Positions 20,673 through 49,659 of a stretch of 64,000 bases of DNA are shown piece by piece. The translations under genes and the position numbers were made by a program. The notes under the pieces are model-generated. The model was not told the origin of the DNA and did no database searches. It was given only the letters and a program-made list of their open reading frames with translations. The DNA is from Strigamia acuminata (lineage: Eukaryota). Where the stretch lies: NCBI GenBank assembly GCA_949358305.1, contig OX442314.1:5084001-5148000 (forward strand), in the 5' to 3' direction. Each line of letters opens with the position of its first letter. Position 1 is the first letter of the stretch.

Positions 20673-22199
20673 AAGTTAAATGTTTTCTGTTTTCTGGCTA
20701 CTATTCGCGGGTGGCTACTATTCGCGGGCGACTGTTAATTGGTATAATTCAGTAGTTGCCGCTTGACTTCAAATTATTTTGATTTGATTTTCATTAACCA
20801 AAATGAACCCACGGAGAGAAGTAATCGGGATGAACGGCCGATTGACTCCGGCCGAAAGATTTTTTGAAAGTCAAACAGCATCATTTCCGGTTGACCAAAC
20901 ACACTCGAGCAATTTGTTCTTTTTTTTCAATTCGGAGTCTCAATTGAATTGCATCGGGTTGTAACTTAAATTGCACGTCGGGGAATCGAATGCGATGACA
21001 CGTGATTGAAAACTGAGTGTTTGGTTTTGTTAAATCCCCATTGTTAACGCTTTGCGTCAAATGCCGGCTTAATGAACGCCGCTTGTGCAAAATCTAAAAT
21101 ACTTGCTGAATCACGAGCGACGCGGGTGCACTCAAATTGCAATAAAGTTGTTCACGCGCCCGATCAAGCACGAATCATCGTTTCGACATTTACTACTGTT
21201 GCAGAAAGCCAACTTAATTAGTTCTAGCACGATTAAAACAAGACTTTACATTTGCAAGTATTTCATTGTTCAACAAGTAAAGTAAATATAGAAAAAAAAA
21301 CTGCTTTTGGGTTAAGGCTTTTACCGACAGAGGGCGCAAGCAACGCCGGAAGTTGAAACAATCAAACAATTATGTCAATATTTGTCCCCTCACCAGTTGC
21401 TGCATTGTTGTGATCACATGATCTTGTCACCTGGCCTCATTTTTCCAAAAAAATGCCAACAATGAGTTAACGGCTGTAGTCATGGCGAGCCGCCATTTGT
21501 CTTTTGTCAGTTGGAAGTTGTAATATTGCAACAATGTGTTGACGGGCCAACATTGTTGACAAAACTGGGAAGTCCAAACCATTATAGTTATTTAGGCCTA
21601 TTTTTGATGTAACAATGGCATTTTTAAAGCTGAAATTGTTTAGGAAAGCATTGTTTGGTTGAGGATTGTTTATTTGCAACGGAGGGAAAAATAGTTTATA
21701 GTGTAACAATAATAAGAAAAGCAACAAAGTACCGTGTTTAACAAGCAGAAATCACTTTCTTGCTTTGTTATTGCTTTATTTGACATGTTTGAAAGGATTT
21801 ATTATCCAAATTGTGAGAAAACTCGCATCTTTTGACCATTTTGATGTAGAAATATGCCCAGAATGATGGCTTGGAATGAAGAATGATGAGCCAGGAAGTG
21901 GAGCACAGCAGAATACACAACTCACAATTTAAACTATTTTTTCGTTTTAAACAAGAGAGTTGGAATTAAAAAAATAAAATAAAGTAAAGTAAAAATTAAA
22001 GTTGATTGTTTGGTGTTGGTTGCAGCTTGATTTCTGGCAGTTTAGTGGAAAAATTACTTTTCTGGATAAGTGGTCATGCGAACACCCAAGCATATGACAG
22101 ACAGGTGGTTGCCCAATACACTGTTGGTTCTTGAGATATTGCAATATATAAACTTTGTGATATTGAAATTATAATTTTGTATTTTCAAGTAGCGATAGA

Positions 22200-22960
22200 A
22201 TATCCCAACATCGCAATTTGCAATGTAGATCGTAATAAAATCGCAAAATTTTCAAAGTATTGTAATAAATCGCAAAATTTGCAATGTATTGTAATAAATC
22301 GCAAAATGTGCAATATATTGTAGCAAAATTTGCAATATATTGTAGCAAAATTTGCAATATATTGTAGCAAAATTTGCAATATATTGTAGCAAAATTTGCA
22401 ATATATTGTAGCAAAATTTGCAATATATTGTAGCAAAATTTGCAATATATTGTAGCAAAATTTGCAATATATTGTAGCAAAATTTGCAATATATTGTAGC
22501 AAAATTTGCAATATATTGTAGCAAAATTTGCAATATATTGTAGCAAAATTTGCAATATATTGCAGCAAAATTTGCAATATATTGTAGCAAAATTTGCAAT
22601 ATATTGCAGCAAAATTTGCAATATATTGTAGCAAAATTTGCAATATATTGTAGCAAAATTTGCAATATATTGCAGCAAAATTTGCAATATATTGCAGCAA
22701 AATTTGCAATATATTGCAGCAAAATTTGCAATATATTGTAGCAAAATTTGCCATATATTGTAGCAAAATTTTATTGTAATAAAATCGCAAAATTTGCAAT
22801 TTTTTGTAATAAAATCGCAAAATTTGCAATATATTGTAATAAAATCGCAAAATTTGCAATATATTGTAATAAAATCGCAAAATTTGCAATACATTGTAAT
22901 AAAATTGCAAAATTTGCAAAACATTGTAGCAAAATCGCAAAAATTGCAACATATTTTCAT
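22200..22960. repeat. 22-bp palindromic minisatellite (TGTAGCAAAATTTGCAATATAT) grading into 30-bp units
   Basis: About 20 near-perfect copies; source of the repetitive ORFs 22169-23005. Confidence 0.95.
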
Positions 22961-26375: not shown

Positions 26376-28213
26376 CATTTGAATTATAAATGAATCAGAT
26401 TGAACTCGTTTTGGTTCCTTCAAGAGAGTTATCACTCAATTTGTTTTATTTTCTCATTTATCTAATCATAGTTATCACATTACGGCTGGAAATGGAAAAT
26501 GTTGTAATATTCATTGAATTTTAATCAAATGCTACTCATTTGTACACATGTGCAGTGGACACACCATCCTTGGATTGTATTAATAATGATAGTGGTTTGG
26601 TCCTTAAGTTGCAATTATCCATTGAAGCTGCATGGATGAAAATGGAAATCAATGGAAAACATCGAATAAAATATCGATAGTTAGTATCAGAACACAAAGC
26701 ATGATGAAAATATCGGTATTCAATAAGAAAAATTTTGCTTCAATGTATTAAGTTGATTTTTCACCTTTAATTTTGTTTTCATTTTTTTTTCTCGACAACT
26801 AACGCGATTTTCTTTCTGAAATTTCATGTATTTTCATTTAACATCATAAAAAACAAAAAAATAATAGATTTAAAAATTCTAAAAAAAAAACTTTTTACAA
26901 AATTACGTTGTTTCCCCACTACTTTTGAATCCAATGTCAATCATTTTTGTCACTCTTTCGACAAATACCGCTTTGCTTAAATTTCTTCATAAACATGAAA
27001 TGCTCAGAGAATAAAATCATTTTCACAAGTTTTTGGAAAAAAATTGTAGTGAACTTGAACGTGAACTAGTTAACACGGTGATGAACGTGAACTTGAACTA
27101 GTTAACGATTTGGTGAACGAGATACAACACTGCTGAACATGTGCAAATTGCAGGGGGTCTAAAAATCCCAAATTTTGCGTTACGTAATTTATGGACGGTC
27201 CCTTTTTGCTCTGTTTCAGTCGAGTGAAATCGAGGAAAACAAAGTCGACCCAATAAAAGCGGGTCGCGCAGCCTGCGCATTGGTGTGCCGTCTTTCCTCT
27301 TAATCCCATTTCTCAGGTTGAGTGGGAAGAGTTAATTTGCCCGGCACCAGATTCCTTTCCACCATCTAAATGTCGTGCACGTGGCGGTTTCGGTGGAACC
27401 TCCTTCGCTTTATTCCTCTTGCGGTTTTGCCACATGGTGTCGCCGTTGCAATCTCTGCAACGGGTGCAATCTTTTGCCTCCACGCATGCGTGAAAAGCAC
27501 TCACTGTGTAAAAGTGCAATTTAATTTGCCAAAAAAGCCTTCAACTTGTCCTCGCCTCGACTTATTCGTCTTATATGTAGCCAGTGCTGGTTTTAGCATC
27601 TGTGAGGCCATAGACAGATGTGGGTAAATGTGAGGTTTGAGGATCCGCAGTTCTGTAAAAAATCATTTTTTACTTATGGTCCTTGGTGTTGGTAAAACGT
27701 GATTTTGATTTTTGTTGAATGAAAATACAAATAAATGAAATACAAATAACTGACTTTCTGATGTTTTTTTGGACCAATAATGAAGAGATCAGTTTCAAAG
27801 TGGGTGTTTAATGTTCACTAAAATATACATAAAATGAATTATTAACTACTTTCAAATTAAAATGAACATACAATTTTCAATAAATTTAATGTTGAATGTA
27901 TTTAAAGTGGTTGGAACAGAGTGGAAACAAAATTTGAAGCTGAGTCCAAAACTTAAGCCGGACTGTACTGACCTGTTAAGATTGGTTCTAAAAGGAGTCT
28001 CTCTGTACTCAAAACCATTGCAATGTGTTCTTGACTCCTATTGGGTGAGCCGTCTCATTGGTGTAGTGGCACAAAAAAGTAGACCATGACACAAGAATTG
28101 TAATCTAACCTTGGACAAGATCCTTGTCCAAGATCTAACTAGGCAAAACAACCAATAAAAAAATAAATCCTAGTTTACCTGCTAAAAGAAATTAACAAAC
28201 TATGTTAACATTA

Positions 28214-28575
28214 AATGTAGCAAAATCTCATAAAATGTAGCAAAATCTCACAAAATCTCATAAAATGTAGCAAAATCTCACAAAATCTCATAAAATGTAG
28301 CAAAATCTCACAAAATCTCATAAAATGTAGCAAAATCTCACAAAATCTCATAAAATGTAGTAAAATCTCACAAAATCTCATAAAATGTAGCAAAATCTCA
28401 CAAAATCTCATAAAATGTAGCAAAATCTCATAAAATGTAGCAAAATCTCACAAAATCTCATAAAATGTAGCAAAATCTCACAAAATCTCATAAAATGTAG
28501 CAAAATCTCATAAAATGTAGCAAAATCTCACAAAATCTCAAAAAATGTAGCAAAATCTCACAAAATATAGCAAAT
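28214..28575. repeat. 10/30-bp minisatellite (CAAAATCTCA-TAAAATGTAG-CAAAATCTCA)
   Basis: Tandem units visible. Confidence 0.95.
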
Positions 28576-30464
28576 TCACGTGCAATCTCGTACCGGTACA
28601 TCTGAAAAACCCACAAAAGTATTGCTGAAGAAATTTGCAATGAGCTTGCTTGGTTTATTTCCATAGTTACTCACAATATTAATAATAAGCAAAACAATTA
28701 CATTACTGTATTCACACTGCTTCTACATTTTCCAACTAATATAATTTTATGAAGTAAGCTTTACATAACAGTACCGGTACATGCAAAAACTCAGCTCGCC
28801 TAAAACCGTTCCTAACTCCACGAAACGGCCGGAGCTGTCGCTGGCTGCAACGGTTGAAAATCACCCGTGACACCTGGCCTGGCACGATGATTGATATTCC
28901 CTTCGGAGGGCGAAAAGGGGTCGCAACGAGGGGCACGTGCTTTTTTACCCACCGCTAGGGAGATGGCGAGCGCGCACCAATCATTGGACGTGTTTTTAAC
29001 TCCCTTTGGCAGTGATGGCAGAGGTGGGGACGCGAACGGCAAGCGGGAGGATGTCAGCTCCAATTGCACCAAATCACGTGTGGGAGTATTTTTTCTTGTT
29101 TGAGTCAACTGGTGGCGGTTGACGGAGTGATTTCAAGCTGCATTGGAAACACCCCATCAATAAAATGAGAGTCAAGTGTAAAGAGCAGGAGAAGGAAAAA
29201 ATGGCAGGTGCGTGTTGCACACCACTCCGGGCTCTGTTTTCAATGCATCTTTAAAGGTTTTTTTTTTCTTCTTTCGTGGTAATGAAATGAGGCTTTGACT
29301 GAGAAAGGCAGAGTGTTTTCGTATAAAAGTAAAGTTGACTTCGGTAACTGAGAAAACGGCAGAAATTCCCTCTGTCTCATTCTAGGATCAATTTTGACCT
29401 CCAAAAGTGTTTTTATTTTTTTTCTCGTATACATACGGGATTTTCATAAAATTCTTTTGTTTACCGACTACTTTCGGATTCAGTCTGATTACTTTTGTCA
29501 TGTTCTTTCGACAAATAACTTCGTTAAGTGACAGCATAGAAATGAAAGTCAGTCTATACTCAAAACCACCCCAACGTTGATCTATTTCACTGGTGTAGTG
29601 GCACAAAAAAGTAGTTCAAAACACCAGAATTGTAATCGAACTCCAGACATTGTGCTCAATTACCAACATTGTCAAAGGTGATGCTTTGACACAGAACTAC
29701 TTTTCCGCGTAGTAGAACACAGTACACAGTTAGACGTAAACCGGCTGAAATAGGTGTCTTCGATATTGGCTTTATAGCTAAATTTGCATATCGGTAGTGT
29801 CATTCGGCACTGTTCGGTTTAAATTGGAGTATGTGATTAGCTTGTAGTGAGTTGTGGCTATCCAGGGGATTAAGGAGCCTGGCAAACATGAAGCATTACC
29901 TGATTTGCAAAAATGAAGTTACCACGATTAAACTTTAAATGATCTATCTGCAATGGCTAGAATTTTACAAGAAATTGTGTTTCAATGGTAGTCGATGACG
30001 AAAACAAACGCTGTGAAACCTGCAATTCGATTTATATCTATTAATAAAAGTCCTAGGCCTTTGGACCTAACAGGTCATCCTCAGGCTGTTAATGTTTGCA
30101 ATTACAGTTGGTAATGGAATGAAGAGGGCTCTTGCACCCTTAAGCAGTCAGTTACACACTTGTGTGAACTGCAACTATTGAAATAATGGAGGCATCAATT
30201 CTTTCACACCAACAAGATTATTGGCAATTCACAAATCTATTCCTTCCTTTGTAATAGTTGCTCGGTTTTAAGAGCCAGGAAAGTTATCCAGTGGATAACA
30301 AAAGACTAAGAGATGCTAAGAACTAGGCTACTGTTAAAGCAAGTGCCAGGAATGTTTTCATTAATCACGAAGAAAAGTAGAAGGTTCGAAGTCAGTAAGG
30401 ACTTGTTTGCAATAAAGAACTGTGGGTATTTGGATTCATCGTTCTTTTTTAAAACGACATATTA

Positions 30465-31810: not shown

Positions 31811-32389
31811 TACTAATTAATCGAATATCAGCAATACGGAACGGCCCATACGTGTAACAATATATTGTTACGCTTATAATATACTGTATAATATATTGTT
31901 AAGCTAATCTGAACTGGCCAAGTATAGCCCACCATTTTTAGTTTGATTAGTGTGTAAAGCTAGAGTGCGCATAAACCAATGATACGTTAAACGAGGGATA
32001 TCTGTATTTTAGTTTGGGGAACTAGCTCAAACATCCATCTTTAACTTAGCTTTTAGTGATTCAAATTTACCTTGACATCTTCCATAGATGTCTTGGCATA
32101 GCCTAATAACAACTCCCACATTTGCCCGTGGGATGACGACTGCACCAAGTTTAACAAACAAACGCTGAATCAATATTGTGGTTGTTGGTAGCGAGCAATT
32201 GTTATCTTTTATCATCTTCTCTTTTCAAATCATTTCCTTTTTAATCTTTTATCTCTCTGTAGGGCACTACCTTTTTCTCAACAAGGGTTTTCAATAACTG
32301 ATTGGTGTGTCCAGTTGTGGCATCCATATAGGCCACTCTTTGAGCTTATGTGCACAGACAAACCCCACAAGATCAATAGTTTTATTTAC

Positions 32390-33373
32390 TGCTGCGATCC
32401 GGGTTTTTATCCACTTAATTTCTAATAAATTAAGCAGAAACCGCAGGTGAATGCTTAACAAGACTTATATCGCGGCCGAAACTTGTCTAGGGTTAAGTTT
32501 ACGAAAATAGGAATAAAAAGACAGTTTATTATGGTAATAAAAATCACACAATTATTTATTCGGTTTAAATTACAATATATATATTAATAATGATTATGAA
32601 TATCACGATATGCAACAAGTCGCAAGAATAAAATGAGCGGGAAACAATGAAACAAAGGAAGGGCTTGCAACGACTGTTGCAAGCTACAAAGCGTCAGAAA
32701 TGGCGCTTAAACAACGAGATGTTGTTGATCGAAGGCAAATGTCTTCGTTCTCGGCAAACTCACGAACGATGGTCGAAGACGATGGTTCTCGTGGGTTTCT
32801 TCTACGGCTCGTGCGACGGCTCGGCGGCGGTGGTTGACGGCTGTAGGCGTCTGGTCCAGGTACGATGGCGATGGTTGCCGTTCGCGCGGCAACGATGGCG
32901 ATGGTTCACTTGGATCAGGAAACTTCTTCTTCTCGATAGCTGGAATTAGCGACGGCTAATTCAAGCTGAATTGCTGGCTTTGTGCTTTGGATGACACAAA
33001 GATAGCAGATGAAACTGAGTTACAACGGTCCTCTATCAATACGTATTGTCGGAGCAAATATCGCAGTGATGTTGAGGTTGTTGTTGTATTTTTCAGAGTC
33101 CCGATTTGAGCCAAGACGCGAGCCCAGCACGCTTCAATATTGCGCAGAAAACCTGCGCACTTAGCTCAAATGGGTGCAACTAGTGGTTATTACACCATAT
33201 TGCACCATAACGGCTAATAACCGTTTTCACCCCGGACAACCTGGGGTGATATGTGCCTAGAGAGGATTTCTCCCCTCGGTCACATGATCTGACTTGGCGT
33301 GTGCCACAGTCAAATTAATTAGAAGATAATTAATTTAATCTTCTAAGTTGGTGAATATTTTGAGATCACCACA
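32390..33373 (-). repeat. 3' LTR (984 bp)
   Basis: Direct repeat of 43796-44779; TG...CA ends; preceded on the minus strand by the PPT. Confidence 0.97.
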
Positions 33374-33388
33374 CATCCCCCCATTTAA
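33374..33388 (-). other. Polypurine tract
   Basis: Minus strand TTAAATGGGGGGATG directly abuts the TG of the 3' LTR. Confidence 0.85.
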
Positions 33389-33425: not shown

Positions 33426-35708
33426 TTATGATTCGTCCATGTTCTGAGTTCGCTCAGGCGTCAACGGGCGCATCATATCCGTGGTGTCGTCCCTCGGGTT
33501 GGACCGCTCGTTAACCGTACACAGGTCGCGACCTGCGTTTGGTCCGGAGACCATTCCAGGGTTGACATGAAGCCAAACCTGGATGATTCTCGCCGAGTTC
33601 GCTCGGTTGAAAAATCCTAGCGCCGCAAACTCTATGGGATCCTCTGGCGCCAATCGTGCTCTCAGGAGTCGATCGTGGAGCACTGATGGTGGGCTTAACA
33701 CCCGGATGTGGTCCTCGAGCCACATAAACACCTGCCTCGACAACTTGTGGTTGTTGCTAAGCAGTGTTCGCGTATCCGGCGTCAAATAGAAGTGCGGATA
33801 CAGGCGCATCAGGGTCTTGAAAGCCGACTCTTTTTTCAGCGGCTTGACCTTCGTCTCCGGCTTGGCTGGCGGCGGCGGCGGCGGACGTGAGTCTTCCGTC
33901 GTGGCATCGTCAAAATGGCACTGCGGGCCCAAGAAAACCAACGCGGGTGCGGAGGTTGACGAGGGTGTGACGCCTCGTCCCGGTGCTCGACCCACACCGG
34001 GGAGCTGACGGGTTTCGACTACCCGTTGAACTCCGGCTGGAGTTTGAGAACTTCCGGCGTTCTCTGGCCAAAATGAACATCCAGCGCCCTCTTGGGCCGA
34101 CTGGAAAACAGCCAGTGACGCAGCTGCTGTGGCGCTTGTAACTGGAAGCGGTGGTCTTCCGGCTATTCGCGCCGTGGCCTTCGCAAAGGACCACTCGGTT
34201 CGCAACCGAACGGCGGCCTCTTCTTCGGTCTCACCGTTTGCTACGACTTGCTTTATTAGCTCGGCTAAGATCGTAGGCGGGTCGAGCCTGAGGTGGTACC
34301 ACAGCTCGACTTTCTTCTCCGACAGGCCCATCGGCGCGGTCCAAAGGTACGTAATGGCCGCTAACGCCTGTCCTGGCGAAGGAAGAACACCAGGGTACAA
34401 CACCCTAGTCATCCCCGGAATTAGCTGACGCTGAAAATCCATCAGGCGGGGATCATCAATGGTATTGATGTCGGAGACTTCTAGCCTTTCAGCTAGTCTC
34501 TGCCAGTCCTTCTGTGACTCGGCGATCTGGGCGCTTTGGTATGCGTCCAGCTTCTGGAGCACTTCCTGCTGCGCTCTAATGGGTTGCTGCTCGTAGCAGG
34601 TCCATTGTGGGCCGAACGACTCACTGAAAAATGGCCGGAGTTGCAGGTTGCTAACTCCAGCCGGCAAGCGGGAAACATAACCTTGTTCGGGCAAGCGGCT
34701 AGCGTGTCCAGGTACAGGCACACTACAGTCGGGAGAAATATCACCGACGACACGTCTCATGGCGTATGGAGTAGCCGGGTTGTCCACTTTGAACGTGGAG
34801 GCGGTTCGGCTACTTCGGGCGGACTTAATTGTGGAGTCCGATTCGAAACTCAGCGAAGACGACGAGCCAAACGACTCTGGTGTCCGTCCTCGTCGCGACT
34901 GCGGGCGTGATGGCTGCGCGTCAGTCGAATATGGGCGTGATCGCCTCTGACGTTCCTCTCGATCGCGGCTTGATTCGCGGAACATCGGTCGGACTGGAAC
35001 CGGCGGAGGGAGTTGCCCCACCCTCAAATCCTCGTCTTGCGGCGGAGGATTGATGGCCGCTGGGGCCGGAATTTCATCTTCTTGATAAAAAGGGAGAGCG
35101 CAACGCGCTTGCTCCTCTGCCTCGTGTTCTCGAGCCAGTTGTCGATTTTCGTCGACGCGAAGCTGCACCGCGGCAGCTCGGAGTGCTTTGGACGGGAAAA
35201 ATCCCGGAAAATCGTTAAAACACCCGGCGAGCGCCAACTGGTGGAGCTCGGTTTGTGTGACGGGAAGTTGTGGGTTCCCGTCACGAACGGATTTGCGATA
35301 CCGTTTAACGACTTCGCGTTGTGTCGTCTTGAGGTTCTTCCTCAAATGGGTTAGAGCACCGTAATTAATTCCGGTACTCTTTAGCGCTCTTCTGCGCTCG
35401 TGACGCTCTCGTGGCGTCACTGGCCACTGGTTGTGCAGCAACTCTGCTGCAAGCGGTCCTGGGGGGCTCTCGTCGAGCGTCCACTCGATTTCGTCGACAC
35501 CGTCCACGTGAAGGCGCTCGATGAATCTTCCTTTTGCACCAAATCCTTGCAGCGCTGATCTGCTGAAGTCGTGGCGCAACTTCCACCAGGTATTGTTTGC
35601 CGTCTTCAGTCTTCTGATTTTTTCGGGCAATGCCGCTCGAAAAATCAGCGGGTGCTGAGTCGGCACGTGATCGGGAAGCGCGAATGGCGTTTCTCGATCC
35701 CTCTCGAT
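33426..35708 (-). CDS. Retrotransposon accessory gene (ORF3), exon 3; protein of unknown function, not env-like
   Basis: 761-codon open frame with no in-frame ATG near its start; preceded by CTAAT branch site, pyrimidine tract and TAG acceptor (35710-35709), phase 0. Confidence 0.85.
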   Translation of the reverse strand: MERDRETPFALPDHVPTQHPLIFRAALPEKIRRLKTANNTWWKLRHDFSRSALQGFGAKGRFIERLHVDGVDEIEWTLDESPPGPLAAELLHNQWPVTPRERHERRRALKSTGINYGALTHLRKNLKTTQREVVKRYRKSVRDGNPQLPVTQTELHQLALAGCFNDFPGFFPSKALRAAAVQLRVDENRQLAREHEAEEQARCALPFYQEDEIPAPAAINPPPQDEDLRVGQLPPPVPVRPMFRESSRDREERQRRSRPYSTDAQPSRPQSRRGRTPESFGSSSSLSFESDSTIKSARSSRTASTFKVDNPATPYAMRRVVGDISPDCSVPVPGHASRLPEQGYVSRLPAGVSNLQLRPFFSESFGPQWTCYEQQPIRAQQEVLQKLDAYQSAQIAESQKDWQRLAERLEVSDINTIDDPRLMDFQRQLIPGMTRVLYPGVLPSPGQALAAITYLWTAPMGLSEKKVELWYHLRLDPPTILAELIKQVVANGETEEEAAVRLRTEWSFAKATARIAGRPPLPVTSATAAASLAVFQSAQEGAGCSFWPENAGSSQTPAGVQRVVETRQLPGVGRAPGRGVTPSSTSAPALVFLGPQCHFDDATTEDSRPPPPPPAKPETKVKPLKKESAFKTLMRLYPHFYLTPDTRTLLSNNHKLSRQVFMWLEDHIRVLSPPSVLHDRLLRARLAPEDPIEFAALGFFNRANSARIIQVWLHVNPGMVSGPNAGRDLCTVNERSNPRDDTTDMMRPLTPERTQNMDES

Positions 35709-35978
35709 CTATATTCGAAGAAAAATAAATAAATTAGTTTATTTAAAAATAAACAAATAATTTCTTATTTGAAATATTTTTTAAGCTTAGCGCTTGTGGC
35801 TGTGAGTCACTAAGGGATGTTGGTTGTCATGGCAACTCCCTTCGCACATGCTTGAAGCACGTGACTTTTATAGCCGCCATTTTTATTTTTTAGCGGCTTG
35901 TGTTTGAAGTCAGGAAAAGTGAAATTACTCAATTTTTCTGACTTAAACACTTGGTAAAAATTTATTCTAATAATTTAC

Positions 35979-36106
35979 CCGTTGTTGAAGCGTCAATTGA
36001 ACGTCTTCATTTGCCCCTTCCATGGGCATTTCTCCGTCCGCCTGGAGTTGGATCGCTTCCTCGTCCATTCTCTTTCGTTTTCCGGTAATTTCGGAAATTC
36101 TTTCGT
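35979..36106 (-). CDS. ORF3 exon 2 (ERISEITGKRKRMDEE...LTLQQR)
   Basis: TTTCTCTTTCAAG acceptor, CGG|GTAAAT donor; phase 1 in and phase 0 out match the neighbouring exons. Confidence 0.7.
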
Positions 36107-36172
36107 CTTGAAAGAGAAATAATACATAAATCTTATGTTTTATCAAATTTTTCATACAGAAAAATTACTTAC

Positions 36173-36221
36173 GATCAGGTTGTCGAACTATTCGGGTCGT
36201 AACGTAGGCGATGCGATGCAT
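36173..36221 (-). CDS. ORF3 exon 1 (MHRIAYVTTRIVRQPD)
   Basis: ATG at 36221, 49 nt open, then a consensus GTAAGT donor at 36172 (phase 1). Confidence 0.6.
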
Positions 36222-36239
36222 ACACTCTCGAAACTTTTG

Positions 36240-36360
36240 AAAAAGTGACTAAGTTCGTTGATTGCAAACACGAACTTGGATTAGAGACGCTTTGTGACGT
36301 CACTAATTATAACGTATGATTAACGTTGTCATTCGAGTGAGTACTACGAATGACGTCACG
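36240..36360 (-). promoter_or_regulatory. Candidate internal promoter for ORF3
   Basis: Two perfect TGACGTCA (CRE) palindromes at 36295-36302 and 36351-36358, and an Inr-like TTAGTC near 36250, between the pol stop and the ORF3 ATG. Confidence 0.4.
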
Positions 36361-36410
36361 AGATTGCTTTCTCGGATCTTTTGGGTAAACCCAAAAGGTG
36401 AAAGACAACA

Positions 36411-39400
36411 CTATGTCTTGGCTCGCGGAACGCGAGATCTCAAGTTGTACTTTGACTTTCGCGAAGTACAATCCAACTTGTTTAGATTGTCATCAGCATC
36501 GTCTCCAATGTCAGATGAGTTATATACTTCATTGTTTGAAATTTTCTCTTTTTCTAAAAACATTTCCTTTTCTAGATTTTCATCAAGAGAAACATTTTCA
36601 AGTCGCTGGTTTATTTCATCGACTTCGTTATTTTTGAGTTTCGATTTTTTACTCGATTCCGTGTTTTCGACAGGAATTTTGGATAATTTAGCATCATCCA
36701 AGGTATTAACAATATTTTTTGTTTTTTGACCCACTTCCTCCCCTTCCAGCCAAATTTCTTGGTTGAAAACGGGAAAGTACGGCATTAATTCAGTGCCGTG
36801 AATAGCTGGATAAATTTTATTATCACTCAGCCGTCGAAGTTGAAAGGCGCCTCCTTGTAACCTTTTGATAATTACATAAGGCCCATTCCTTTTCGGTGAA
36901 ATGCCTGCTGCTATTCCTTTAGCGGCATTTGAGAGAATATGAGACTCTCGCCAGACTAAATCATTTTGTCTGAAGTTGTCGAATTTCTTATCTGATTTTT
37001 CAGCTTCGACACGGCGTCTCAAATCTAAGACGTGAGACATCATATGCTGATACGTCTCTGCAATTATTGTTTCTAATTTCTGAACATATAAATGCGGATT
37101 TTTTGGATCAATGACTAAAATTCCTTCCGGAATTCTTGGATCCCAAGGAATTCTTAATTCTCGGAAAAAATTTAAGAAAGCAGGAGAATAATCTCTGCCT
37201 CTTGTTACAGTTGTTCTCAAACTGAATGCAAATTCGCGTAGATACTCATCCCATTGGTCATGAATATCTAAATAAATCGAAACTAAATATTTAATATCTC
37301 GATTGGTTCTCTCCACAGGATTGCTTTGTGGATGATAAATCGATGTCGGTGTTCGCGACATGTCGAATTTTTTGCAAAATTCTTTATAGACCTGTGATCG
37401 AAATTGTGGTCCATTATCACTTATGATTTGTCTCGGAAATCCGAAAGTCATTGATAAGTGATAAATTGTGTTGGCAACTTTTATTGCCGTTGGATTACAC
37501 ATTGGAAATAATTCGGGCCAATGTGTAGCGACATCTACGATGACGCAAATATGGGTATTGTTTTTTCTGGTTCTTGGTTTGGGACCAGACAAATCCACAC
37601 TGAGGCAGTCAAATGGTCCAAATGGTCCAATTTGAGCGCCTTCAATTTCGGTCTTCGATCTCGGCTTGCATGCCTGACATCCTTGACAATGTTGAATAAA
37701 ACGTGTAATATCACGTTTCATACCTTTCCAGGTATAAACTCTTCGAGTTCGGTACATTGTCCTCGCAATGCCTGGGTGGCCGGACAGTGGATGTCCGTGC
37801 ATCAACCAAATGATTTTATAAATCAATTTTCTTGGCACAACAACTTTAAGTGCCCTACCATCCTCTCCCAATTCATCGGTGGAGGTAGGATGATAATGGA
37901 GTAGCATATCTTCTTCAATGAGATAAGTACTCGCGTGTCTTTCAAAGTTTCTTCTTTGAAGACGAGTTACTATGTAACTTGGATATTGCTTGTTTAGCAA
38001 GTAATTGCGAATATGTTGGCAAAATTCGTCTGCTTTTTGCGCTGCAATAATGTCATCTCTCGTTGGAGGATCACATTCTAATTGCTTCGCAATTTTAGCT
38101 GCAAATGCTTTAATTAAAACATTTGTTGTTGGCAGCTCGAATTTTTTAGCCATCATAGCTCTTAATTCGACGTCAGGGGTTCCTGACGGATCATGCATGT
38201 TAATACAAAAATTAATTAATGCTTGATCGTCGTCATTAACTATTATTGACTTGGGTAATTCGTTCAATTTTCCCATTTGCCAACTTCGGCAAGGAGATGG
38301 ACAATATGATAATAAATCATCATTATCGCCATCGTCTTCTGGTTCGTCAGGTGCGCTGACAGGTGCACGTGACAATGCGTCTGCTATTACATTTAGCGGA
38401 CCTTTGACGTATTGTATTTCGAACGAATACGCCATCAGCTCCATTTGCCAACGAGCTAATCTGCCCGACGGGTCAGATAACGACATCAACCACTTAAGTG
38501 CTTGGTGATCCGTTTGTACAGTGAATGTAGTGTACTCTAAGTATGGGCGAAATTTGCGTAATCCCCATACTACTGCGAGACATTCTAATTCTGTCACAGT
38601 ATAATTCTTTTCAGCGGGTTGCAAGCTTCTGCTTGCATACACGCATGGCATTTCGACTTCTTGGCCATCCACATTTTTCTTTTGTGTAAGGGCTGCACCC
38701 AACCCTTGTTTACTGGCGTCAGTATGAACAATAAATGGCATGTACAAGTCAGGCATCTTCATTGTTTCAGCATTCGTAAGCAGGTCTTTTATTGCGTCGA
38801 ATGCTGCTTGATGATGCAGTTCCCAATCGAACTCCGCATCTTTCTTCAAGAGTGGCCTTAGTGGTTCTGCCACTGTGGCCAAATTCTTGATTAGGCGGTG
38901 AAAGAAATTCACCATGCCTAGAAATCTTTGTAATTCCTTAAGATTGGTAGGAGCAGGAAATTGCGTAATTGCAGCGACTTTTTTAGGGTCTACTGCAAGT
39001 CCTTCTACTCCTACTTTGTAGCCTAGAAAAATTAATTCCTTTCTACAGAGATGCGTCTTGCCAGGGTGCGCATGTAAATTAGCTTCTGCCAATTTTTTAA
39101 ACACTATATCTAAATGTTTAATGTGTTCTTCGAACGATTTGGATACAACAATTATGTCATCCAAATATGCCCATGCAAATTTTCTGTAAACGTCACCCAA
39201 AACTTTTTCCATTAATTCTTGGAAGGTAGTTGGTGCGTTTACTAATCCGAAAGGCATGACTAAAAACATTAGTCTTCCCATTGGGCTCCAGAAGGCAGTT
39301 TTTTCTCTGTCTTCAGGTCGCAATTCTATCTGCCAATATCCCTTGGTCAGATCTATAGTACTGACCCATTCGAATTCTCCGATTTCTCGCAGAATTTCCT

Positions 39401-40664
39401 CAATTGTTGGCATTTGAGGTGGGTTGTACTTAGTATGTGTATTGATGGGGCGAAAATCAATGCACAAGCGTGGGTCGTTTCCTGGTCGCATGACTAGGAC
39501 TGGCCTCATTCCGTAATCGCCTTCAGCTTTGACGACTACGCCTTTGTCAATCATGTCTTGACAAAGTTGTCTGATTATTTCCCTTTTTTGAGGGTTTATG
39601 CTCTTAAAGGGGACACGGATGGGTTTCTCCGTGTCAAGCTCAATTTTGTGCTTAACCAGGTGTGTTTTACCTGGATCTTTAGAAATAATCCTTTTATGTT
39701 TGGATAACATCTTTTCTAATAATTTGGATTGCTCCAAATTTAAGTTAGCTTCTTTGACTAACTTTTGGATGAAATTCTCTTCATCAATTTTGCTTTGAGT
39801 TACACTTGCAGCGTAAGCTTTTGCAAAGGTCACAAATGAGGAATCGGGTTCCTCTATTTTCTCCAAATAACGATCCAGCAACGCTTGTGGAATGTAGGGT
39901 AAATCTGCATCCACAGGTTGCGTGAAATTCCAAGACATCGTCTGTGGATTAGGTTGGATTTTTAATTTATTCATAAAATCGCAACCCAATAGTACCATTG
40001 GATACTTATTTGGTATTACGATGAACGGATGACGTAACGTGCCATGTGTCCATCGAAATGAAAGATGAATGGTTCCATCTGGAGTGACTTCTTCACTTGC
40101 CGTCGTGACTCTGACACCAGGTCCGATAGGTCGTAGATATTTTTCTAGACCTAATTGATTAATAACTGAAGTGGCTAGGAAGCTTTTATTTGCTCCTGAG
40201 TCCAACATTCCGGTTATTACACCTTTTAACGTTTCTAACTTTAACGTCGGAAGGTCTTGGCTGTTTGGTATTCCAGCCACTTTGCACTCAAACTTGCGCA
40301 ATTTATGAGGAATTGTAATTGGAGGCTCCAAAGGCAATTCATCTAATAACTCATTGGTATCAAGAGTTGTAGTTGCAAATAACTTAATGCATTCCTCAAT
40401 TCCAGGTGTCTCTGGAACTGAGCTTGGTCTATCGTCTTTAACTTCGACTTTATCTTGAATATTGGAAGTGTCTTCTTCAGTCGGGGTTTCGCCGACAATC
40501 TCCTTTTTTACATCAAGAGATCCATTTTCTTTTAGTTCAGTTTGACGAATTAATTCATCAATAGCTTCTCCAACATCTTCCATTATCTTCAGATTTTCAT
40601 TCTCTGATTCCGATTTCGGAGGTGACGCAGCGTCCACTAGACCTGATGGATCTGCGTCTACAAG
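36411..40664 (-). CDS. pol: Pol polyprotein (aspartic protease, reverse transcriptase, RNase H, integrase), expressed as Gag-Pol by -1 frameshift
   Basis: LDSGA protease; DLTKGYWQ, MPFGL.NAP..FQ and YLDD RT motifs; TDAS/ELE/TDH RNase H; HHCC zinc finger, VDLSGP/SDNGPQF/VERTNR DDE core and GPY motif. Confidence 0.97.
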   Translation of the reverse strand, partial: LVDADPSGLVDAASPPKSESENENLKIMEDVGEAIDELIRQTELKENGSLDVKKEIVGETPTEEDTSNIQDKVEVKDDRPSSVPETPGIEECIKLFATTTLDTNELLDELPLEPPITIPHKLRKFECKVAGIPNSQDLPTLKLETLKGVITGMLDSGANKSFLATSVINQLGLEKYLRPIGPGVRVTTASEEVTPDGTIHLSFRWTHGTLRHPFIVIPNKYPMVLLGCDFMNKLKIQPNPQTMSWNFTQPVDADLPYIPQALLDRYLEKIEEPDSSFVTFAKAYAASVTQSKIDEENFIQKLVKEANLNLEQSKLLEKMLSKHKRIISKDPGKTHLVKHKIELDTEKPIRVPFKSINPQKREIIRQLCQDMIDKGVVVKAEGDYGMRPVLVMRPGNDPRLCIDFRPINTHTKYNPPQMPTIEEILREIGEFEWVSTIDLTKGYWQIELRPEDREKTAFWSPMGRLMFLVMPFGLVNAPTTFQELMEKVLGDVYRKFAWAYLDDIIVVSKSFEEHIKHLDIVFKKLAEANLHAHPGKTHLCRKELIFLGYKVGVEGLAVDPKKVAAITQFPAPTNLKELQRFLGMVNFFHRLIKNLATVAEPLRPLLKKDAEFDWELHHQAAFDAIKDLLTNAETMKMPDLYMPFIVHTDASKQGLGAALTQKKNVDGQEVEMPCVYASRSLQPAEKNYTVTELECLAVVWGLRKFRPYLEYTTFTVQTDHQALKWLMSLSDPSGRLARWQMELMAYSFEIQYVKGPLNVIADALSRAPVSAPDEPEDDGDNDDLLSYCPSPCRSWQMGKLNELPKSIIVNDDDQALINFCINMHDPSGTPDVELRAMMAKKFELPTTNVLIKAFAAKIAKQLECDPPTRDDIIAAQKADEFCQHIRNYLLNKQYPSYIVTRLQRRNFERHASTYLIEEDMLLHYHPTSTDELGEDGRALKVVVPRKLIYKIIWLMHGHPLSGHPGIARTMYRTRRVYTWKGMKRDITRFIQHCQGCQACKPRSKTEIEGAQIGPFGPFDCLSVDLSGPKPRTRKNNTHICVIVDVATHWPELFPMCNPTAIKVANTIYHLSMTFGFPRQIISDNGPQFRSQVYKEFCKKFDMSRTPTSIYHPQSNPVERTNRDIKYLVSIYLDIHDQWDEYLREFAFSLRTTVTRGRDYSPAFLNFFRELRIPWDPRIPEGILVIDPKNPHLYVQKLETIIAETYQHMMSHVLDLRRRVEAEKSDKKFDNFRQNDLVWRESHILSNAAKGIAAGISPKRNGPYVIIKRLQGGAFQLRRLSDNKIYPAIHGTELMPYFPVFNQEIWLEGEEVGQKTKNIVNTLDDAKLSKIPVENTESSKKSKLKNNEVDEINQRLENVSLDENLEKEMFLEKEKISNNEVYNSSDIGDDADDNLNKLDCTSRKSKYNLRSRVPRAKT

Positions 40665-40670
40665 TTTTTT
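40624..40670 (-). other. -1 programmed ribosomal frameshift signal
   Basis: A AAA AAC heptamer (40670-40664), 5-nt spacer, then a GACGCAG/CTGCGTC plus TCCA/TGGA stem-loop (40658-40624). Confidence 0.85.
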
Positions 40671-43600
40671 CGAAACATGTCAGTTATGATCTTGACTGCT
40701 TTTTCAAACTCAGCTGTTGACACTGGTTTGTCCTTTTTAGAGGAAGGGCAGTCTTTTTGCCAATGCCCTAATTTTTTGCATAAATTGCATGGATCAGTGG
40801 CAGGCGATTTCTTTTTCGTTGCTGCTGGCGAGGCAGAACGAGAACGAGCGTCAGACCGGCGCTCTGGCGACACCGCGGGTGATTTTGAATTCCTTTCGGT
40901 ATTCACCTTTGATGCGTCAAATGAAACATTTTTTGGTTTCATTTTTGGCTTCCATTTGCCTGCAACGGGGTTATTTTTTGCTAACAGCGCCGCTGCTTTG
41001 GCTAATAAAGCCAACGTCTCATCTCCTGCTTCCTCCTCCTCTTCAGCTTCTTCAGCTTCAGACGACGGAGTTTCAGCTCCAGTTATATTTGCATGTAACT
41101 TAGGAACTGAATGAGGATTTTTGACGTCCTTTTTGGAAGATTCTTTTTTCGAACTCTTCTCATCCACTTCGTCTAGAAAGTCTTCGTAACTAGGTGGCTG
41201 CAACAATTTCAAACCATTAAAGGTTTCATTGTTTTGCTCAGCGAGTCTTTTCTCTCGCTTTAAGTACGCTGACCTTTCGGCTTCTGTAAGATAAGCTTTG
41301 TACTTTTCGTCAATGCGCAATTGATTGACTTCCATGAATTCGTTTAACTCGGAGAATTTCCCCGGGTCGGGAGCGTCCGACATCATCAGAATATTTTTAC
41401 TATATTCTGTGAGGCCAGCTCTAAACTGATCATCTGCTGTTGCATCAGTAACAGCATGTGGCATTCTGCCAAGCAGATTCTCTGCTCTTAGCATGTACGA
41501 ATGTAAGCTTTCGCCTTTTCGTTGCTTAAGACATCTCCAGAGCGTCTTGATGTCTTCGCTCGATTCACCAAATTTAAACATAAATTGTTTAACGAAGTCA
41601 TCCCACTTCGTGAAGTCTTTCCTGCGAAACCACTCCTTGACACCGCCAACTAGTATTCTTGGTACTAGATGGGCCAATGCACCTTCACAGCTAAAACTGT
41701 GAACTTTGCCTAGTTCGAATATTTCCAGCAAGAGGTTTGACCCTGCTTGCCAATTTCCATTATAGGCATGTGGGATAACTCGATCCCATCTAATGAACTT
41801 TTCATCTGTTGTTTGATGAGTCCATTTATCAGAAGTAAATTCACTTATTTTTTGCAAAATAATTTTATCCCTTCTGCTTTTTCGCTGTTGTTGAGCATTT
41901 TGCCTCAACAACTGGTCAATCTCATCTTTCGTGTAAAAATCGGGTCTTTGAGTTCTACTACGTGTTCTGTGACGAGATCGCCCTCTCACACTGGGACGTG
42001 AGGAATCTGTATCTGACGCAGATTCATGATTCGGATTTGGCGGCGGATCAGGGTCCGGAGGATCGTCGCCATCTGGCGGACGACGGTCTCCATTTGGTGG
42101 TCCCCTTCCATTTCGATTGCCATTCGAATTGTGGTCACGTGAGTGGCCACCTCCATGTCCATCTGAACTGTCTCCACCTGGTGGGTCACCACCTGGCGGA
42201 TTTCCACGGTATCTCGGCCCATCACGGATGTCGTTGTGACAATCTCGTTTTGGTGAGCCTTCTCGCGGATTATCGTGTGACCGTCCACGATCGTGTGGTT
42301 TCTCACGTTCTTTATTCTTTTTCGCCAGCAATCCAATTAATTGGTCACTATTGCTAAAGAATCTATCCGAATTTTGCGGAACTTTTGGGGAATGATATTC
42401 GGTCGGGTCTGGTTGTCGCTTTCTCTTTTTGCGACTGTGATGACTATTACGGCTTCCACGACTACTGCGTGAGTCATCGCTGTCAGTCCAACTTGATTGT
42501 CGACTGACTTTTGGTTTAGCTGATGTTAAATCAATCAACTCAGGTGATTTGGAAGCACCTTTTTGCAAAACTGGGGCTGGCTTTGCAAAATTATCTTCGC
42601 CGCAAACGTCTTGTACTTTTTGTACGACTACTGCAAAGTTCTCTTGTACCGTCAACAGATCTGCGCGAAGAATTTCGTTTTCACGAGCTTGCGCAGCTAA
42701 GTCGGCACGTAATAACTGCTCTGCAGTACTTTGACTTTTGGCGGCTTGACCAGCATCAATTACGGACTGCTGTCGAGCGAGAAATACTTCGTTTTCTCGT
42801 TGTGCTAATCTCTTAGCTCTTGCTGCTTGCTCTGCAGCATGATTCTCGTAATTTCGAGAAGTGGAGGGAATTACTTCCCTCGCTCGAACTGGGGCGGTTA
42901 GTTCGGCAGTCATTAAATTTGTGTTGGCTTCTCGCAAATTTGCGTTGGCCAATCTCAAATTTTCATTAGCAATTTCTAAATCTTTTTGGGCTTGATTTAG
43001 TTGCTCGAGCCTTTGTTGTTGCTCTTCGTCAGTAATTAGCCAGGAAGCTTTTTCCTGCTCTAATTGTAACAACTTAACATGGTCATTCGCACGTTGTTGT
43101 TTTAGTTCGGCATTTTGCTGATGCATTTCTGCACGCATTCGCTCGAACTCTGCTTGCAAGCTTGTTCTGACGATTTCAACGTCTTTTTGGCTTTGTTTGC
43201 GAACCATAGCTTTGTGGATTTGTTCCACAGTCATTTCGCTAGTGACTTTTACTCCCTCGAGCCTAGCTTGCTCACGGAGTGCGTCCATCATGGTTACACG
43301 CACGGGAGAATGAGAAACTTCCATATTGGAGTTCTCAGAATCTTGTTGTGCTGCACCTTGAACCGGTGATGAATTCAGCGAGTGCTCTGCACTTGATGAT
43401 TGAATTCGTAAATTCAAATCATCGTTTTGCGACTTGGAACGGCCACTTCCAGTTGGATTGTTTAAGTCCAACTGGCCGCTTGGCGGGGATGGCTGTTGTC
43501 GCTCCAACGCTTGCGTGAATTCATTCACGATTAACTGTGCCGAGTTACAGTTAGCTGTTTGATCCATGGCTTCAAACAGTTCTTGTGACTCAGTCACTTC

Positions 43601-43681
43601 TTGATCCACGACTGGTAGATCGATCGCCACTCGTCTCTTCGCCGGCCTTCCTCTCGGTCTCTTCTCTGAAGGAGTCGCCAT
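40658..43681 (-). CDS. gag: Gag polyprotein (1007 aa)
   Basis: ATG ~95 nt after the PBS; coiled-coil-like region, retrotransposon capsid motif (LVGGVKEWF..WDDF..QF...LKQRKGES...Y) and CCHC knuckle CNLCKKLGHWQKDC. Confidence 0.95.
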   Translation of the reverse strand: MATPSEKRPRGRPAKRRVAIDLPVVDQEVTESQELFEAMDQTANCNSAQLIVNEFTQALERQQPSPPSGQLDLNNPTGSGRSKSQNDDLNLRIQSSSAEHSLNSSPVQGAAQQDSENSNMEVSHSPVRVTMMDALREQARLEGVKVTSEMTVEQIHKAMVRKQSQKDVEIVRTSLQAEFERMRAEMHQQNAELKQQRANDHVKLLQLEQEKASWLITDEEQQQRLEQLNQAQKDLEIANENLRLANANLREANTNLMTAELTAPVRAREVIPSTSRNYENHAAEQAARAKRLAQRENEVFLARQQSVIDAGQAAKSQSTAEQLLRADLAAQARENEILRADLLTVQENFAVVVQKVQDVCGEDNFAKPAPVLQKGASKSPELIDLTSAKPKVSRQSSWTDSDDSRSSRGSRNSHHSRKKRKRQPDPTEYHSPKVPQNSDRFFSNSDQLIGLLAKKNKEREKPHDRGRSHDNPREGSPKRDCHNDIRDGPRYRGNPPGGDPPGGDSSDGHGGGHSRDHNSNGNRNGRGPPNGDRRPPDGDDPPDPDPPPNPNHESASDTDSSRPSVRGRSRHRTRSRTQRPDFYTKDEIDQLLRQNAQQQRKSRRDKIILQKISEFTSDKWTHQTTDEKFIRWDRVIPHAYNGNWQAGSNLLLEIFELGKVHSFSCEGALAHLVPRILVGGVKEWFRRKDFTKWDDFVKQFMFKFGESSEDIKTLWRCLKQRKGESLHSYMLRAENLLGRMPHAVTDATADDQFRAGLTEYSKNILMMSDAPDPGKFSELNEFMEVNQLRIDEKYKAYLTEAERSAYLKREKRLAEQNNETFNGLKLLQPPSYEDFLDEVDEKSSKKESSKKDVKNPHSVPKLHANITGAETPSSEAEEAEEEEEAGDETLALLAKAAALLAKNNPVAGKWKPKMKPKNVSFDASKVNTERNSKSPAVSPERRSDARSRSASPAATKKKSPATDPCNLCKKLGHWQKDCPSSKKDKPVSTAEFEKAVKIITDMFRKNL

Positions 43682-43775: not shown

Positions 43776-43793
43776 ATCCCGGACGGGCCCCCA
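43776..43793 (-). other. Primer-binding site, tRNA-Pro type
   Basis: Minus strand TGGGGGCCCGTCCGGGAT, 2 nt from the 5' LTR; one mismatch from the classic Pro PBS TGGGGGCTCGTCCGGGAT. Confidence 0.9.
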
Positions 43794-43795
43794 CG

Positions 43796-44779
43796 TGCTG
43801 CGATCCGGGTTTTTATCCACTTAATTTCTAATAAATTAAGCAGAAACCGCAGGTGAATGCTTAACAAGACTTATATCGCGGCCGAAACTTGTCTAGGGTT
43901 AAGTTTACGAAAATAGGAATAAAAAGACAGTTTATTATGGTAATAAAAATCACACAATTATTTATTCGGTTTAAATTACAATATATATATTAATAATGAT
44001 TATGAATATCACGATATGCAACAAGTCGCAAGAATAAAATGAGCGGGAAACAATGAAACAAAGGAAGGGCTTGCAACGACTGTTGCAAGCTACAAAGCGT
44101 CAGAAATGGCGCTTAAACAACGAGATGTTGTTGATCGAAGGCAAATGTCTTCGTTCTCGGCAAACTCACGAACGATGGTCGAAGACGATGGTTCTCGTGG
44201 GTTTCTTCTACGGCTCGTGCGACGGCTCGGCGGCGGTGGTTGACGGCTGTAGGCGTCTGGTCCAGGTACGATGGCGATGGTTGCCGTTCGCGCGGCAACG
44301 ATGGCGATGGTTCACTTGGATCAGGAAACTTCTTCTTCTCGATAGCTGGAATTAGCGACGGCTAATTCAAGCTGAATTGCTGGCTTTGTGCTTTGGATGA
44401 CACAAAGATAGCAGATGAAACTGAGTTACAACGGTCCTCTATCAATACGTATTGTCGGAGCAAATATCGCAGTGATGTTGAGGTTGTTGTTGTATTTTTC
44501 AGAGTCCCGATTTGAGCCAAGACGCGAGCCCAGCACGCTTCAATATTGCGCAGAAAACCTGCGCACTTAGCTCAAATGGGTGCAACTAGTGGTTATTACA
44601 CCATATTGCACCATAACGGCTAATAACCGTTTTCACCCCGGACAACCTGGGGTGATATGTGCCTAGAGAGGATTTCTCCCCTCGGTCACATGATCTGACT
44701 TGGCGTGTGCCACAGTCAAATTAATTAGAAGATAATTAATTTAATCTTCTAAGTTGGTGAATATTTTGAGATCACCACA
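43796..44779 (-). repeat. 5' LTR (984 bp)
   Basis: Direct repeat of 32390-33373, followed on the minus strand by the PBS. Confidence 0.97.
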
Positions 44780-45245
44780 TTACTTGATTCTCCGGCCGGG
44801 CAAATGATTTTTAACGCTGTATTTCAATGACCCCCCCATTCTAAAGAATTGCTTTACATAGAAAAAGGAGGCGAGCAATAGAACTAAAGGTGATTGGCCA
44901 GTAGAACTAAAAAGTCATATAAAGATAGAGAACTGTGTGTGAGTACACTCATCAACGTGCATCCAGAATACGGTGAATGTTTCTAGGAGCTGTATAATTT
45001 GGAGGTGCTTGCCAGCAAATGATGTTGGTTGATACTTCAAGTTGAGCACTCAGTTCCTGCAGACAAATATTAAGCGTACTTGAGATAGACTTGAAGATTA
45101 ACATTCCGAAAAGATTTTCTACCGGTTCATTCTGCCCAAAGCACAACTAAACTCGATTGAAAGTTATATAAAATTTTATGCAAAATTATATAATGTACGG
45201 TGTATCGGTACTGCGGTACACTTTGGGGTGTTCCGCACCCAACAC

Positions 45246-48497: not shown

Positions 48498-49659
48498 TAC
48501 GGAAGCCCGTAGTGGCCAAGGTTAATTTGGGGCCGTTATTGTTTGCGGTAAACGAAAGTTTGCAAGCGAGTTTGATGGAGTGCTCGAGCGTGAGATGACG
48601 TTGCCTTGTAACATTTTGTGGGTGAGTTGATAATATAGCTACGAGCATCCATCATCGAGCTCGTTGCGCGAGCAGGAGGGGGAAGAAGCGACAGCGCCGC
48701 TTTACGGTGAGTGTCGTGACAAGACACTTAAATCTTTTTTGCTTTCGGTTCATCTTCATCTTTTGTATATACGAAATGAAATTGCGAGGTGAGGTTATAA
48801 TGCTTGCATTTTATAGCCACTATGCATTTGAGTTTACGCCGAAATAAACGTCAAGATGAAGCCCGAGATAAAGCGCTCGGTCCCATTCTGCCTTTAGTTT
48901 TACTGCGCACTATTTGCTTCGTTAGTGTCACGTAAAAATGAATTATTCCGAGAGGATTTAATCTCCAATTGTGATTTTTTTTTTTTAATTTTTAAGTAAA
49001 ATGAGAAATTTTATTTGTATTTTTTTTTTTTTTTGGTTTGGTTTTGTTTAGCTTTGCAATTGGTCTCTTGTGGTTTGTTGTTGTTGTTGTTGTTGATGTT
49101 GCGATTTTTTGAGTGTTTTTAGGAGCTTATTTTAAGTTAATGCTTTTTTTTATTTTTTTTTATTTTTTTTATTTTATTTTATTTTATTTTATTTTATTTT
49201 ATTTTATTTTATTATTTTTTATTTTATTTTATATCATTTTATTATTATTTTTTTTTGGGTTGAGATATTATGGGATCTGAAATAAAATTTGAATGAATTG
49301 GATGTTTGGTGGAATGGATCGATGCTGTTTTTCTGTAGAAATATTTTTTTTTTTTAGGTCTGAAATTGTAGTATTGTGGGAATTCAAATTACAAATTGGG
49401 TGTTTCTGGATCTAAAATTGCACCATAGTGCATAAAAATTATTATTTTTATTTGTATTCAGTTCAAAACTACATTTTAAATGCATTTCCAGGGTCTAAAA
49501 ATGCATGATTCTGCATATAATTTGCATTTGGAGCATTATTAAGTCTAGAAAACTTTATTTTAGTCCGTTATAGTCTAAAGATGTTTTTTGGAGTCTAGTA
49601 ATTTTATTTTTTACTATTACTCAGTCTAAAGAGGTGTTTTTCAGTATGTCACTGCATTT

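Follow-up and report, generated by a model that had tools for sequence, protein, structure and literature searches.

A predicted spliced orphan gene in the env position of a Gypsy retrotransposon of Strigamia acuminata, possibly a helper of genomic RNA export

How long terminal repeat (LTR) elements retain introns in the sense orientation through reverse transcription, and how often accessory regulators arise anew in such elements, are two questions raised by a 64,000-nt stretch of the genome of Strigamia acuminata (contig OX442314.1, positions 5,084,001 to 5,148,000; hereafter the window). Its minus strand carries an entire Gypsy element (44779-32390), with two LTRs of 984 nt each that are 100% identical, start with TG, end with CA and are bordered on either side by a 4-nt target-site duplication. 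The two LTRs, a primer-binding site (PBS), a polypurine tract (PPT) and the target-site duplication, together with gag followed by pol in the order protease, reverse transcriptase, RNase H, then integrase (PR-RT-RH-IN), place it in the Ty3/Gypsy group. Between pol and the PPT, in the position of errantivirus env, lies an orphan gene that is predicted to be split into three exons and that may, tentatively, serve the export of the element's own unspliced RNA (coordinates in Table 1).

The original prediction joined the three exons into a single 819-aa frame without stop codons, with GT-AG introns of 66 and 270 nt in phases 1 and 0, and this join reads as claimed: the predicted exons (49, 128 and 2283 nt) add up to 2460 nt with zero internal stops. 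The open frame of exon 3 is beyond chance, since its 760 codons compare with a longest frame of 184 codons on average and 411 at most in 2000 resamples. In predicted exon 2, the sole open frame is the one required. The splice sites, described at the outset as good, do stand near the top of those available in the element, with donors ranking 3 and 9 among 599 GT and acceptors ranking 4 and 1 among 844 AG, by a crude consensus score devised once the sites were already known. In the 10.4-kb internal region of the element, 40-nt windows reach 85% AT or more in three runs, two of which fall inside the predicted introns. The AT-richness ascribed to both introns applies throughout to intron 1 (80%), whereas intron 2 (70% overall) is AT-rich at its ends only and has a core of about 130 nt with 40-50% GC. 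Similarly, the proposal that the upstream exons supply an ATG which the long frame lacks is borne out in part: of the two ATGs that precede the first donor past the pol stop, both in phase, only the one at 36221 opens a stop-free frame, but an in-frame ATG also occurs within exon 3, at codon 242. The exon-2 ATG at 36068 lies in a better start context than that at 36221, and translation from there would lose the GKRKR motif. The gene is very probably real and spliced in some form.

Sibling copies could be followed in two public runs which contain the sequence (X1 and X2; both are of unrecorded kind, belong to one study and may be the source sample). A contig skipping the entire element (32385^44780) is present in both, and this empty insertion site, together with the identical LTRs, suggests that the element probably inserted recently and is polymorphic at this site. 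The depth of single contigs over the element is in the thousands compared with about 75-290 at one-off joints, which suggests tens to about 100 copies, depth itself not being copy number. The summed depth over exon 3 is similar to that over pol (36-44k vs 25-45k in X1, 110-153k vs 130-216k in X2), and none of the 12 listed indels (22 in total) falls within coding DNA, which makes up 78.5% of the element. One of these 12 is a 2-nt deletion found in sibling copies at 35719, within the intron-2 pyrimidine tract. A 486-nt contig with a depth of about 6000 carries the likely promoter region, intron 1 and the exons on both sides of it in unspliced form with 1 difference, and no joint indicative of intron loss occurs among the 15 of 37 joints listed. 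Deletions at low depth affect gag and pol as well as exon 3, as would be the case in decayed copies, and one of them removes exons 1 and 2, its ends not being GT-AG. Among the best-supported 40 of 229 substitutions, exon 3 accounts for 8, of which 7 affect third positions and 5 are silent, compared with an expected silent share of 25-29% (P 0.025-0.053); for pol, 10 of 15 are silent, and for gag 11 of 14. An antisense frame sharing third positions also yields 5 of 8, but it is not a long open frame. These observations favour a functional gene, present in most copies and probably under purifying selection, with the exon-3 statistics alone being borderline.

What kind of protein would such a gene encode? 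It had been argued that the product is not an envelope protein, and this holds: neither signal peptide nor membrane span was detected in a hydropathy scan of the predicted product (best 19-aa hydropathy 1.0; best N-terminal value -0.46), which contains 1 N-glycosylation sequon and one RxRR, the latter in a disordered linker. The signal peptide, transmembrane anchor and glycosylated ectodomain of errantivirus and retroviral env are thus missing from it, as is a match to an env family in Pfam. The predicted product further displays 7 scattered Cys, basic segments and an acidic stretch in predicted exon 2. Database queries with the gene used exon 3 alone. Pfam searches with exon 3, whole and by domain, gave no match (best E 0.05) and detected no DNA-binding or chromatin domain. 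No homologue of exon 3 was found in a set of 5.8 billion proteins covering lengths 418-1330 only, among 1.84 billion representatives, in the ESM Atlas (exon 3 whole and residues 622-732), in PDB sequences and metagenome contigs, or in the 84 loci considered below (best E 0.39); similarity to the element's own Gag and Pol was not detected either, and an internal repeat in exon 3 was not significant. Single-sequence structure models of the exon-3 product were poor (mean pLDDT 41 and 49), with three helical regions of low confidence and Pro/Ser/Arg-rich linkers between them. Foldseek with these models gave no match at E<=0.001, and the best VIA-align hit (Z 6.8 over 43 residues) corresponds to a common helix pair. 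The absence of any recognisable domain, noted from the outset, therefore extends to sequence and fold searches with exon 3. A CARD or death fold for the C-terminal region, at first a hunch, received no support from domain, PDB-sequence, model, Foldseek or ESM Atlas checks. Exon 3 is also, as had been observed, richer in GC and CpG than pol (GC 0.57 vs 0.40; GC at third codon positions, GC3, 0.60 vs 0.34; CpG observed/expected 1.18 vs 0.96). Since its GC3 differs from that of pol and also of gag (0.38), and leans towards that of a host exon in the window (0.80), the composition hints at a separate origin of exon 3.

Clues on the mode of expression come from the 189-nt stretch that separates the pol stop from the ATG, in which two perfect TGACGTCA palindromes (at 36358 and 36302) are found where 0.003 are expected, the motif having been spotted prior to being tested. 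An initiator-like TTAGTC is located at 36252, 31 nt ahead of the ATG at 36221, and the core of intron 2 (35883-35803) contains motifs packed in hairpins which we take to be YY1-, TATA-, E-box-, X-box- and AP-1-like, the names of the promoter motifs being presumed in the same way. Together, the paired palindromes, the initiator-like motif and the intron-2 cluster suggest that an internal promoter downstream of pol is likely; the intron-2 cluster is a possible intronic enhancer. The X-box-like palindrome in intron 2 is the sole match to the search pattern in the window. Within the 5' LTR, the donor-like GTGAGT at 44169 ranks 7 among the 599 GT of the element.

Hairpins in the intron region reach z scores of -6.8 and -5.9. 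They were considered as a specific response element, which had to be rejected because gag and pol fold equally strongly, with windows reaching -7.1 and -6.5, respectively; mean z is -2.3 for gag, -2.65 for pol (46 of 71 windows below -2) and -3.05 for the promoter/intron region. By main region, mean z relative to shuffles in 120-nt windows within the element ranges from -1.9 to -3.05, compared with -0.84 in the host flanks (103 windows), and this looks like ordered structure along the whole element RNA, open reading frames (ORFs) included. Some of the palindromic motifs may be accounted for by hairpins. Rfam returned no meaningful match.

Relatives of the element (84 loci, fetched by an alignment query) were compared with it for the content of the region past pol. 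The pol query alone yielded no relative among viral contigs, and the closest pol relatives are about 45% identical in RT/RNase H. The element forms a clade with P0044, L017, L018 and L066 (FastTree support 0.986; UFBoot 100 on RT/RH plus IN in an IQ-TREE analysis of 44 rows, rooted with a plant element, for which 4 of 47 picked rows had been dropped for short matches; the relatives are unnamed). The three sisters with DNA (all but P0044) each have a sense ORF past pol, whose ATG is found 1-5 nt downstream of a pyrimidine- or AT-rich, acceptor-like AG in each case. In L017, where an acceptor-like sequence is found at the stop of pol and a GTAAGT right after the PBS, an orphan ORF of 262 aa (5775-6563) lies between pol and a clear PPT. 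In L018, the orphan ORF, of which only the first 54 aa are available (about 5020 to contig end), has an RGG-rich start. The 304-aa orphan ORF of L066, with a Cys/His-rich N-terminus, is preceded by a TATA box, a short exon and a GT-AG intron of 87 or 86 nt in two diverged copies that are 80% identical; the TATA box, a GTGAGT donor and the acceptor are retained in both copies, and the intron core is 61% identical between them compared with 89% for the preceding exon. With a dN of 0.09 and a dS of 0.75 (96 codons), the sequence of the L066 ORF indicates that it is under purifying selection. A database search with it returned its own entry alone. The LTR edges of L066 were looked for and not found, so that its ORF might sit inside a long LTR. 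Basic character is common to the sister ORFs, with KRK/RKR clusters in L017 and L066 and RGG-rich sequence in L018, and GC3 of ORF and pol is 0.62 vs 0.48 in L066 and 0.29 vs 0.31 in L017. Among the 12 loci with RT before IN and at least 900 nt of downstream sequence, 7 have an ORF of at least 150 aa past pol. Two of these are explained, the downstream ORFs of L027 by a second tandem gag-pol and that of L030 by a transposase, and were ruled out as accessory genes. The other five comprise L017 and four more distant Gypsy loci (L007, L041, L045 and L074); since unexplained sense ORFs past pol thus also occur outside the clade, a slot filled by something other than env is not rare.

Spliced regulators of genomic RNA export have long been regarded as a trait of complex retroviruses. 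The one invertebrate Gypsy case found in the full-text literature searched is CERV of the Gypsy/Ty3 element Cer1 of C. elegans, a nuclear protein of 517 aa encoded by five exons and needed for genomic RNA export (PMC10309623). The gene described here resembles it as an accessory gene, predicted to consist of several exons, in an invertebrate Gypsy element that keeps splice sites in its genomic RNA, as well as in its large product, its basic motif resembling a nuclear localisation signal (NLS) and its lack of homologues beyond its own lineage; CERV differs in having exons in common with gag, a Cys loop, a G-protein-like domain and a demonstrated function. Because strong splice sites persist across many reverse-transcribed copies, the packaged RNA presumably escapes splicing, and since introns can persist only on this condition, the element would need a way round nuclear retention. 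The simplest tested precedent for this being a spliced accessory protein which licenses the export of unspliced RNA, we tentatively propose that the orphan in the env slot is a CERV- or Rev-like helper exporting unspliced genomic RNA, a reading that we consider plausible although somewhat short of probable. The orphan gene would be transcribed from its own promoter past pol and then spliced twice; the resulting short mRNA would appear first and leave the nucleus by the normal route; and its predicted soluble, Arg-rich product would bind the full-length RNA, allowing gag-pol translation and packaging.

Several points weigh against this proposal. Many simple retroviruses export unspliced RNA by means of a cis element and no protein (PMC10309623). 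The proposed gene lies entirely past pol and shares no exon with gag, unlike that of CERV, and a search for homology to CERV-type folds (the Cys loop of the M domain and the G domain) gave 0 matches in libraries in which the presence of CERV itself is not established. No homologue, domain or fold links the exon-3 product to the binding or export of RNA; the Arg-rich and NLS-like motifs carry little information, and GKRKR is gone if the start is at 36068. No response element was identified in the introns, the sister ORFs share no sequence with the element's gene and need not share its function, and the selection signal in exon 3, based on 8 sites from the best-supported 40 of 229, is borderline.

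Other explanations accept a real, spliced gene and assign it a different task. Its protein could be a Tas-like LTR transactivator or an anti-silencing factor, which a signal-responsive internal promoter would supply first and which would then activate or protect the full-length transcript; this is the chief competitor of the export reading, although we rate it as rather doubtful. Tas and VANC are the respective models for these roles. The twin TGACGTCA motifs ahead of exon 1 and the intron-2 cluster would suit such a regulator, as would the acidic stretch in exon 2, the basic segments and the several helical regions predicted by the models, and complex retroviruses use an internal promoter for accessory genes (PMC4402516). 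On the other hand, the lack of a detectable DNA-binding or chromatin domain argues against it, the palindromic motifs lie in hairpins and may reflect RNA structure, and the persistence of introns in genomic RNA is left unexplained. Capture of a host gene along with its own promoter and introns, either serving another role (cell survival, germline access or particle trafficking) or kept as a weakly selected passenger, appears unlikely; splicing would then be escaped by cis structure alone. The whole element RNA is indeed structured, exon-3 GC3 (0.60 vs 0.34-0.38 in pol and gag) is nearer that of the host Erg28 exon (0.80), L066 exhibits the same contrast (0.62 vs 0.48), and unrelated ORFs in the sisters fit repeated capture; against this, no host homologue was found in 1.84 billion representatives, the GC3 of the L017 ORF matches that of its pol (0.29 vs 0.31), and the host comparison consists of one short exon (148 nt).

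The remaining explanations differ in how the message would be made. If there were no internal promoter, a message from the 5' LTR might be spliced in the manner of env from 44169 to the acceptor before exon 2, giving a product of about 790 aa that starts at 36068 and lacks GKRKR, with exon 1 unused or minor. Tor3a env is made likewise (PMC4402516), GTGAGT at 44169 ranks 7 of 599, the ATG at 36068 is in the better context, and L017 shows a GTAAGT just past its PBS, with an acceptor-like sequence where pol stops. Nevertheless, this would account neither for the rank-3 donor at 36172 and the AT-rich intron of 66 nt nor for the motif pair and the ATG at 36221, which is in phase and stop-free, and we regard this route as quite improbable. 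Least credible of all is that the introns arose by chance and that only exon 3 is translated, from its codon 242 onwards, or that it is an insert in decay: there is an in-frame ATG at this codon and a TATA-like motif in intron 2, but 241 open codons precede that ATG, the splice sites rank at the top and have matching phases, and within the gene a listed indel is tolerated in an intron only.

Returning to the proposed export helper, a wider and more speculative possibility, which we would hesitate to endorse, is that an undescribed Gypsy lineage refills its env slot with unrelated orphan RNA-binding regulators, in the form of a spliced, swappable cassette that is sometimes separately promoted. 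This would amount to repeated independent invention of Rev-like proteins, in the present case with a product that shields its own two introns from splicing.

Foamy viruses have an internal promoter for Tas/Bet. The likely internal promoter and the predicted spliced accessory message near the 3' LTR recall this arrangement and that of HIV Rev, the RNA-export factor used for comparison (PMC10309623); no sequence similarity to these Retroviridae counterparts (Tas/Bet, Rev) was detected. In Tor3b and Tor4b of Oikopleura, an internal promoter located within pol or past it expresses the third ORF as an unspliced mRNA, and the env of Tor3a is produced by splicing from the leader (PMC4402516). Tor3b and Tor4b are similar to the element in the internal promoter for an ORF past pol, here deduced from motifs, but their product is a transmembrane Env, that of the element being predicted to be soluble and split by two predicted introns. 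Non-env ORFs in lieu of env have been reviewed, including those of rotifers and plants (PMC6431247), and in bdelloid rotifer LTR elements the ORF3 which takes the place of env is treated as a separate spliced unit (PMC5408684). This ORF3 likewise is a non-env ORF in the env slot. The extra ORFs of rotifer retroelements include recognisable enzymes, such as a GDSL lipase and a DEDDy exonuclease, within which the available part of the review mentions no introns (PMC6431247), whereas the element's gene is an orphan. In insect Gypsy elements of the MDG1 group, sORF1 and sORF2 (about 70-110 aa, unspliced) lie upstream of gag (PMC11952523); these are accessory non-env proteins as well, from which the element's gene differs in size, place and predicted introns. 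The general idea of such genes is therefore already known (PMC10309623, PMC4402516, PMC6431247). What is new here is the likely internal promoter, the unrelated orphan ORFs behind acceptor-like sites in the sisters and the L066 intron kept in diverged copies. The full-text literature searched, from which subscription papers are largely absent, yielded no Gypsy element in which a non-env gene past pol has two introns and is separately promoted, and Repbase, Dfam or GyDB may list the family; the accessible part of PMC13524379 describes no such gene.

Table 1. Features of the Gypsy element and of its sister locus L066. Positions refer to the window, except for L066, where they refer to that locus.
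Feature	Position	Strand	Remarks
Target-site duplication, upstream copy	44780..44783	-	4 nt
5' LTR	43796..44779	-	984 nt; initiator-like TCAGTT (44424), donor-like GTGAGT (44169)
Primer-binding site	43776..43793	-	2 nt past LTR
gag	40658..43681	-	about 1007 aa; Retrotrans_gag and CCHC knuckle
Likely -1 frameshift slippery heptamer (inferred)	40664..40670	-	in 22-nt gag/pol overlap
pol	36411..40679	-	1422 codons; PR-RT-RNase H-IN; overlaps gag by 22 nt, -1 frame
Likely internal promoter and short 5' UTR (untranslated region)	36222..36410	-	motif-based
Predicted exon 1	36173..36221	-	49 nt; ATG in weak context
Predicted intron 1	36107..36172	-	66 nt; phase 1; GTAAGT..AG; 80% AT
Predicted exon 2	35979..36106	-	128 nt; GKRKR, then in-frame ATGs at 36068, 36029, 36023
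Predicted intron 2	35709..35978	-	270 nt; phase 0; GTAAAT..AG; 70% AT; hairpin-rich core
Exon 3	33426..35708	-	2283 nt; 760 open codons; orphan
Polypurine tract	33376..33386	-	2 nt ahead of 3' LTR
3' LTR	32390..33373	-	
Target-site duplication, downstream copy	32386..32389	-	4 nt
L066, two diverged copies	382-1524 and 9438-9967		

With regard to the identity of the element, its gene differs from errantivirus env in the absence of signal peptide, membrane span and env family match, and its Gag contains a CCHC knuckle, which to our knowledge is absent from errantivirus Gag. The N-terminal half of Gag is long and coiled-coil-like, and a Gly/Pro/Arg/Ser-rich spacer precedes the capsid-like region. 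The primer-binding site is presumably of the tRNA-Pro type, of which published supplementary data gave no confirmation, and thus the primer probably differs from the tRNA-Lys of Osvaldo. The 984-nt LTR and the 4-nt target-site duplication fit the Osvaldo lineage, with its LTRs of about 1-2.1 kb and mostly 4-nt target-site duplications (PMC3286476), the LTR being at the lower edge.

Elsewhere in the window, a host Erg28-like coding exon (9396-9543, plus strand, 148 nt, GC3 0.80) is followed by a GTGAGT donor and an AT-rich intron, and a tRNA-Met gene was identified by ARAGORN at 352-423 (plus strand). The flanks of the element contain dispersed inverted repeats and many short-period minisatellite arrays with periods of 10-30 nt (e.g. 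22169-22881, 28149-28596 and 49548-50109).

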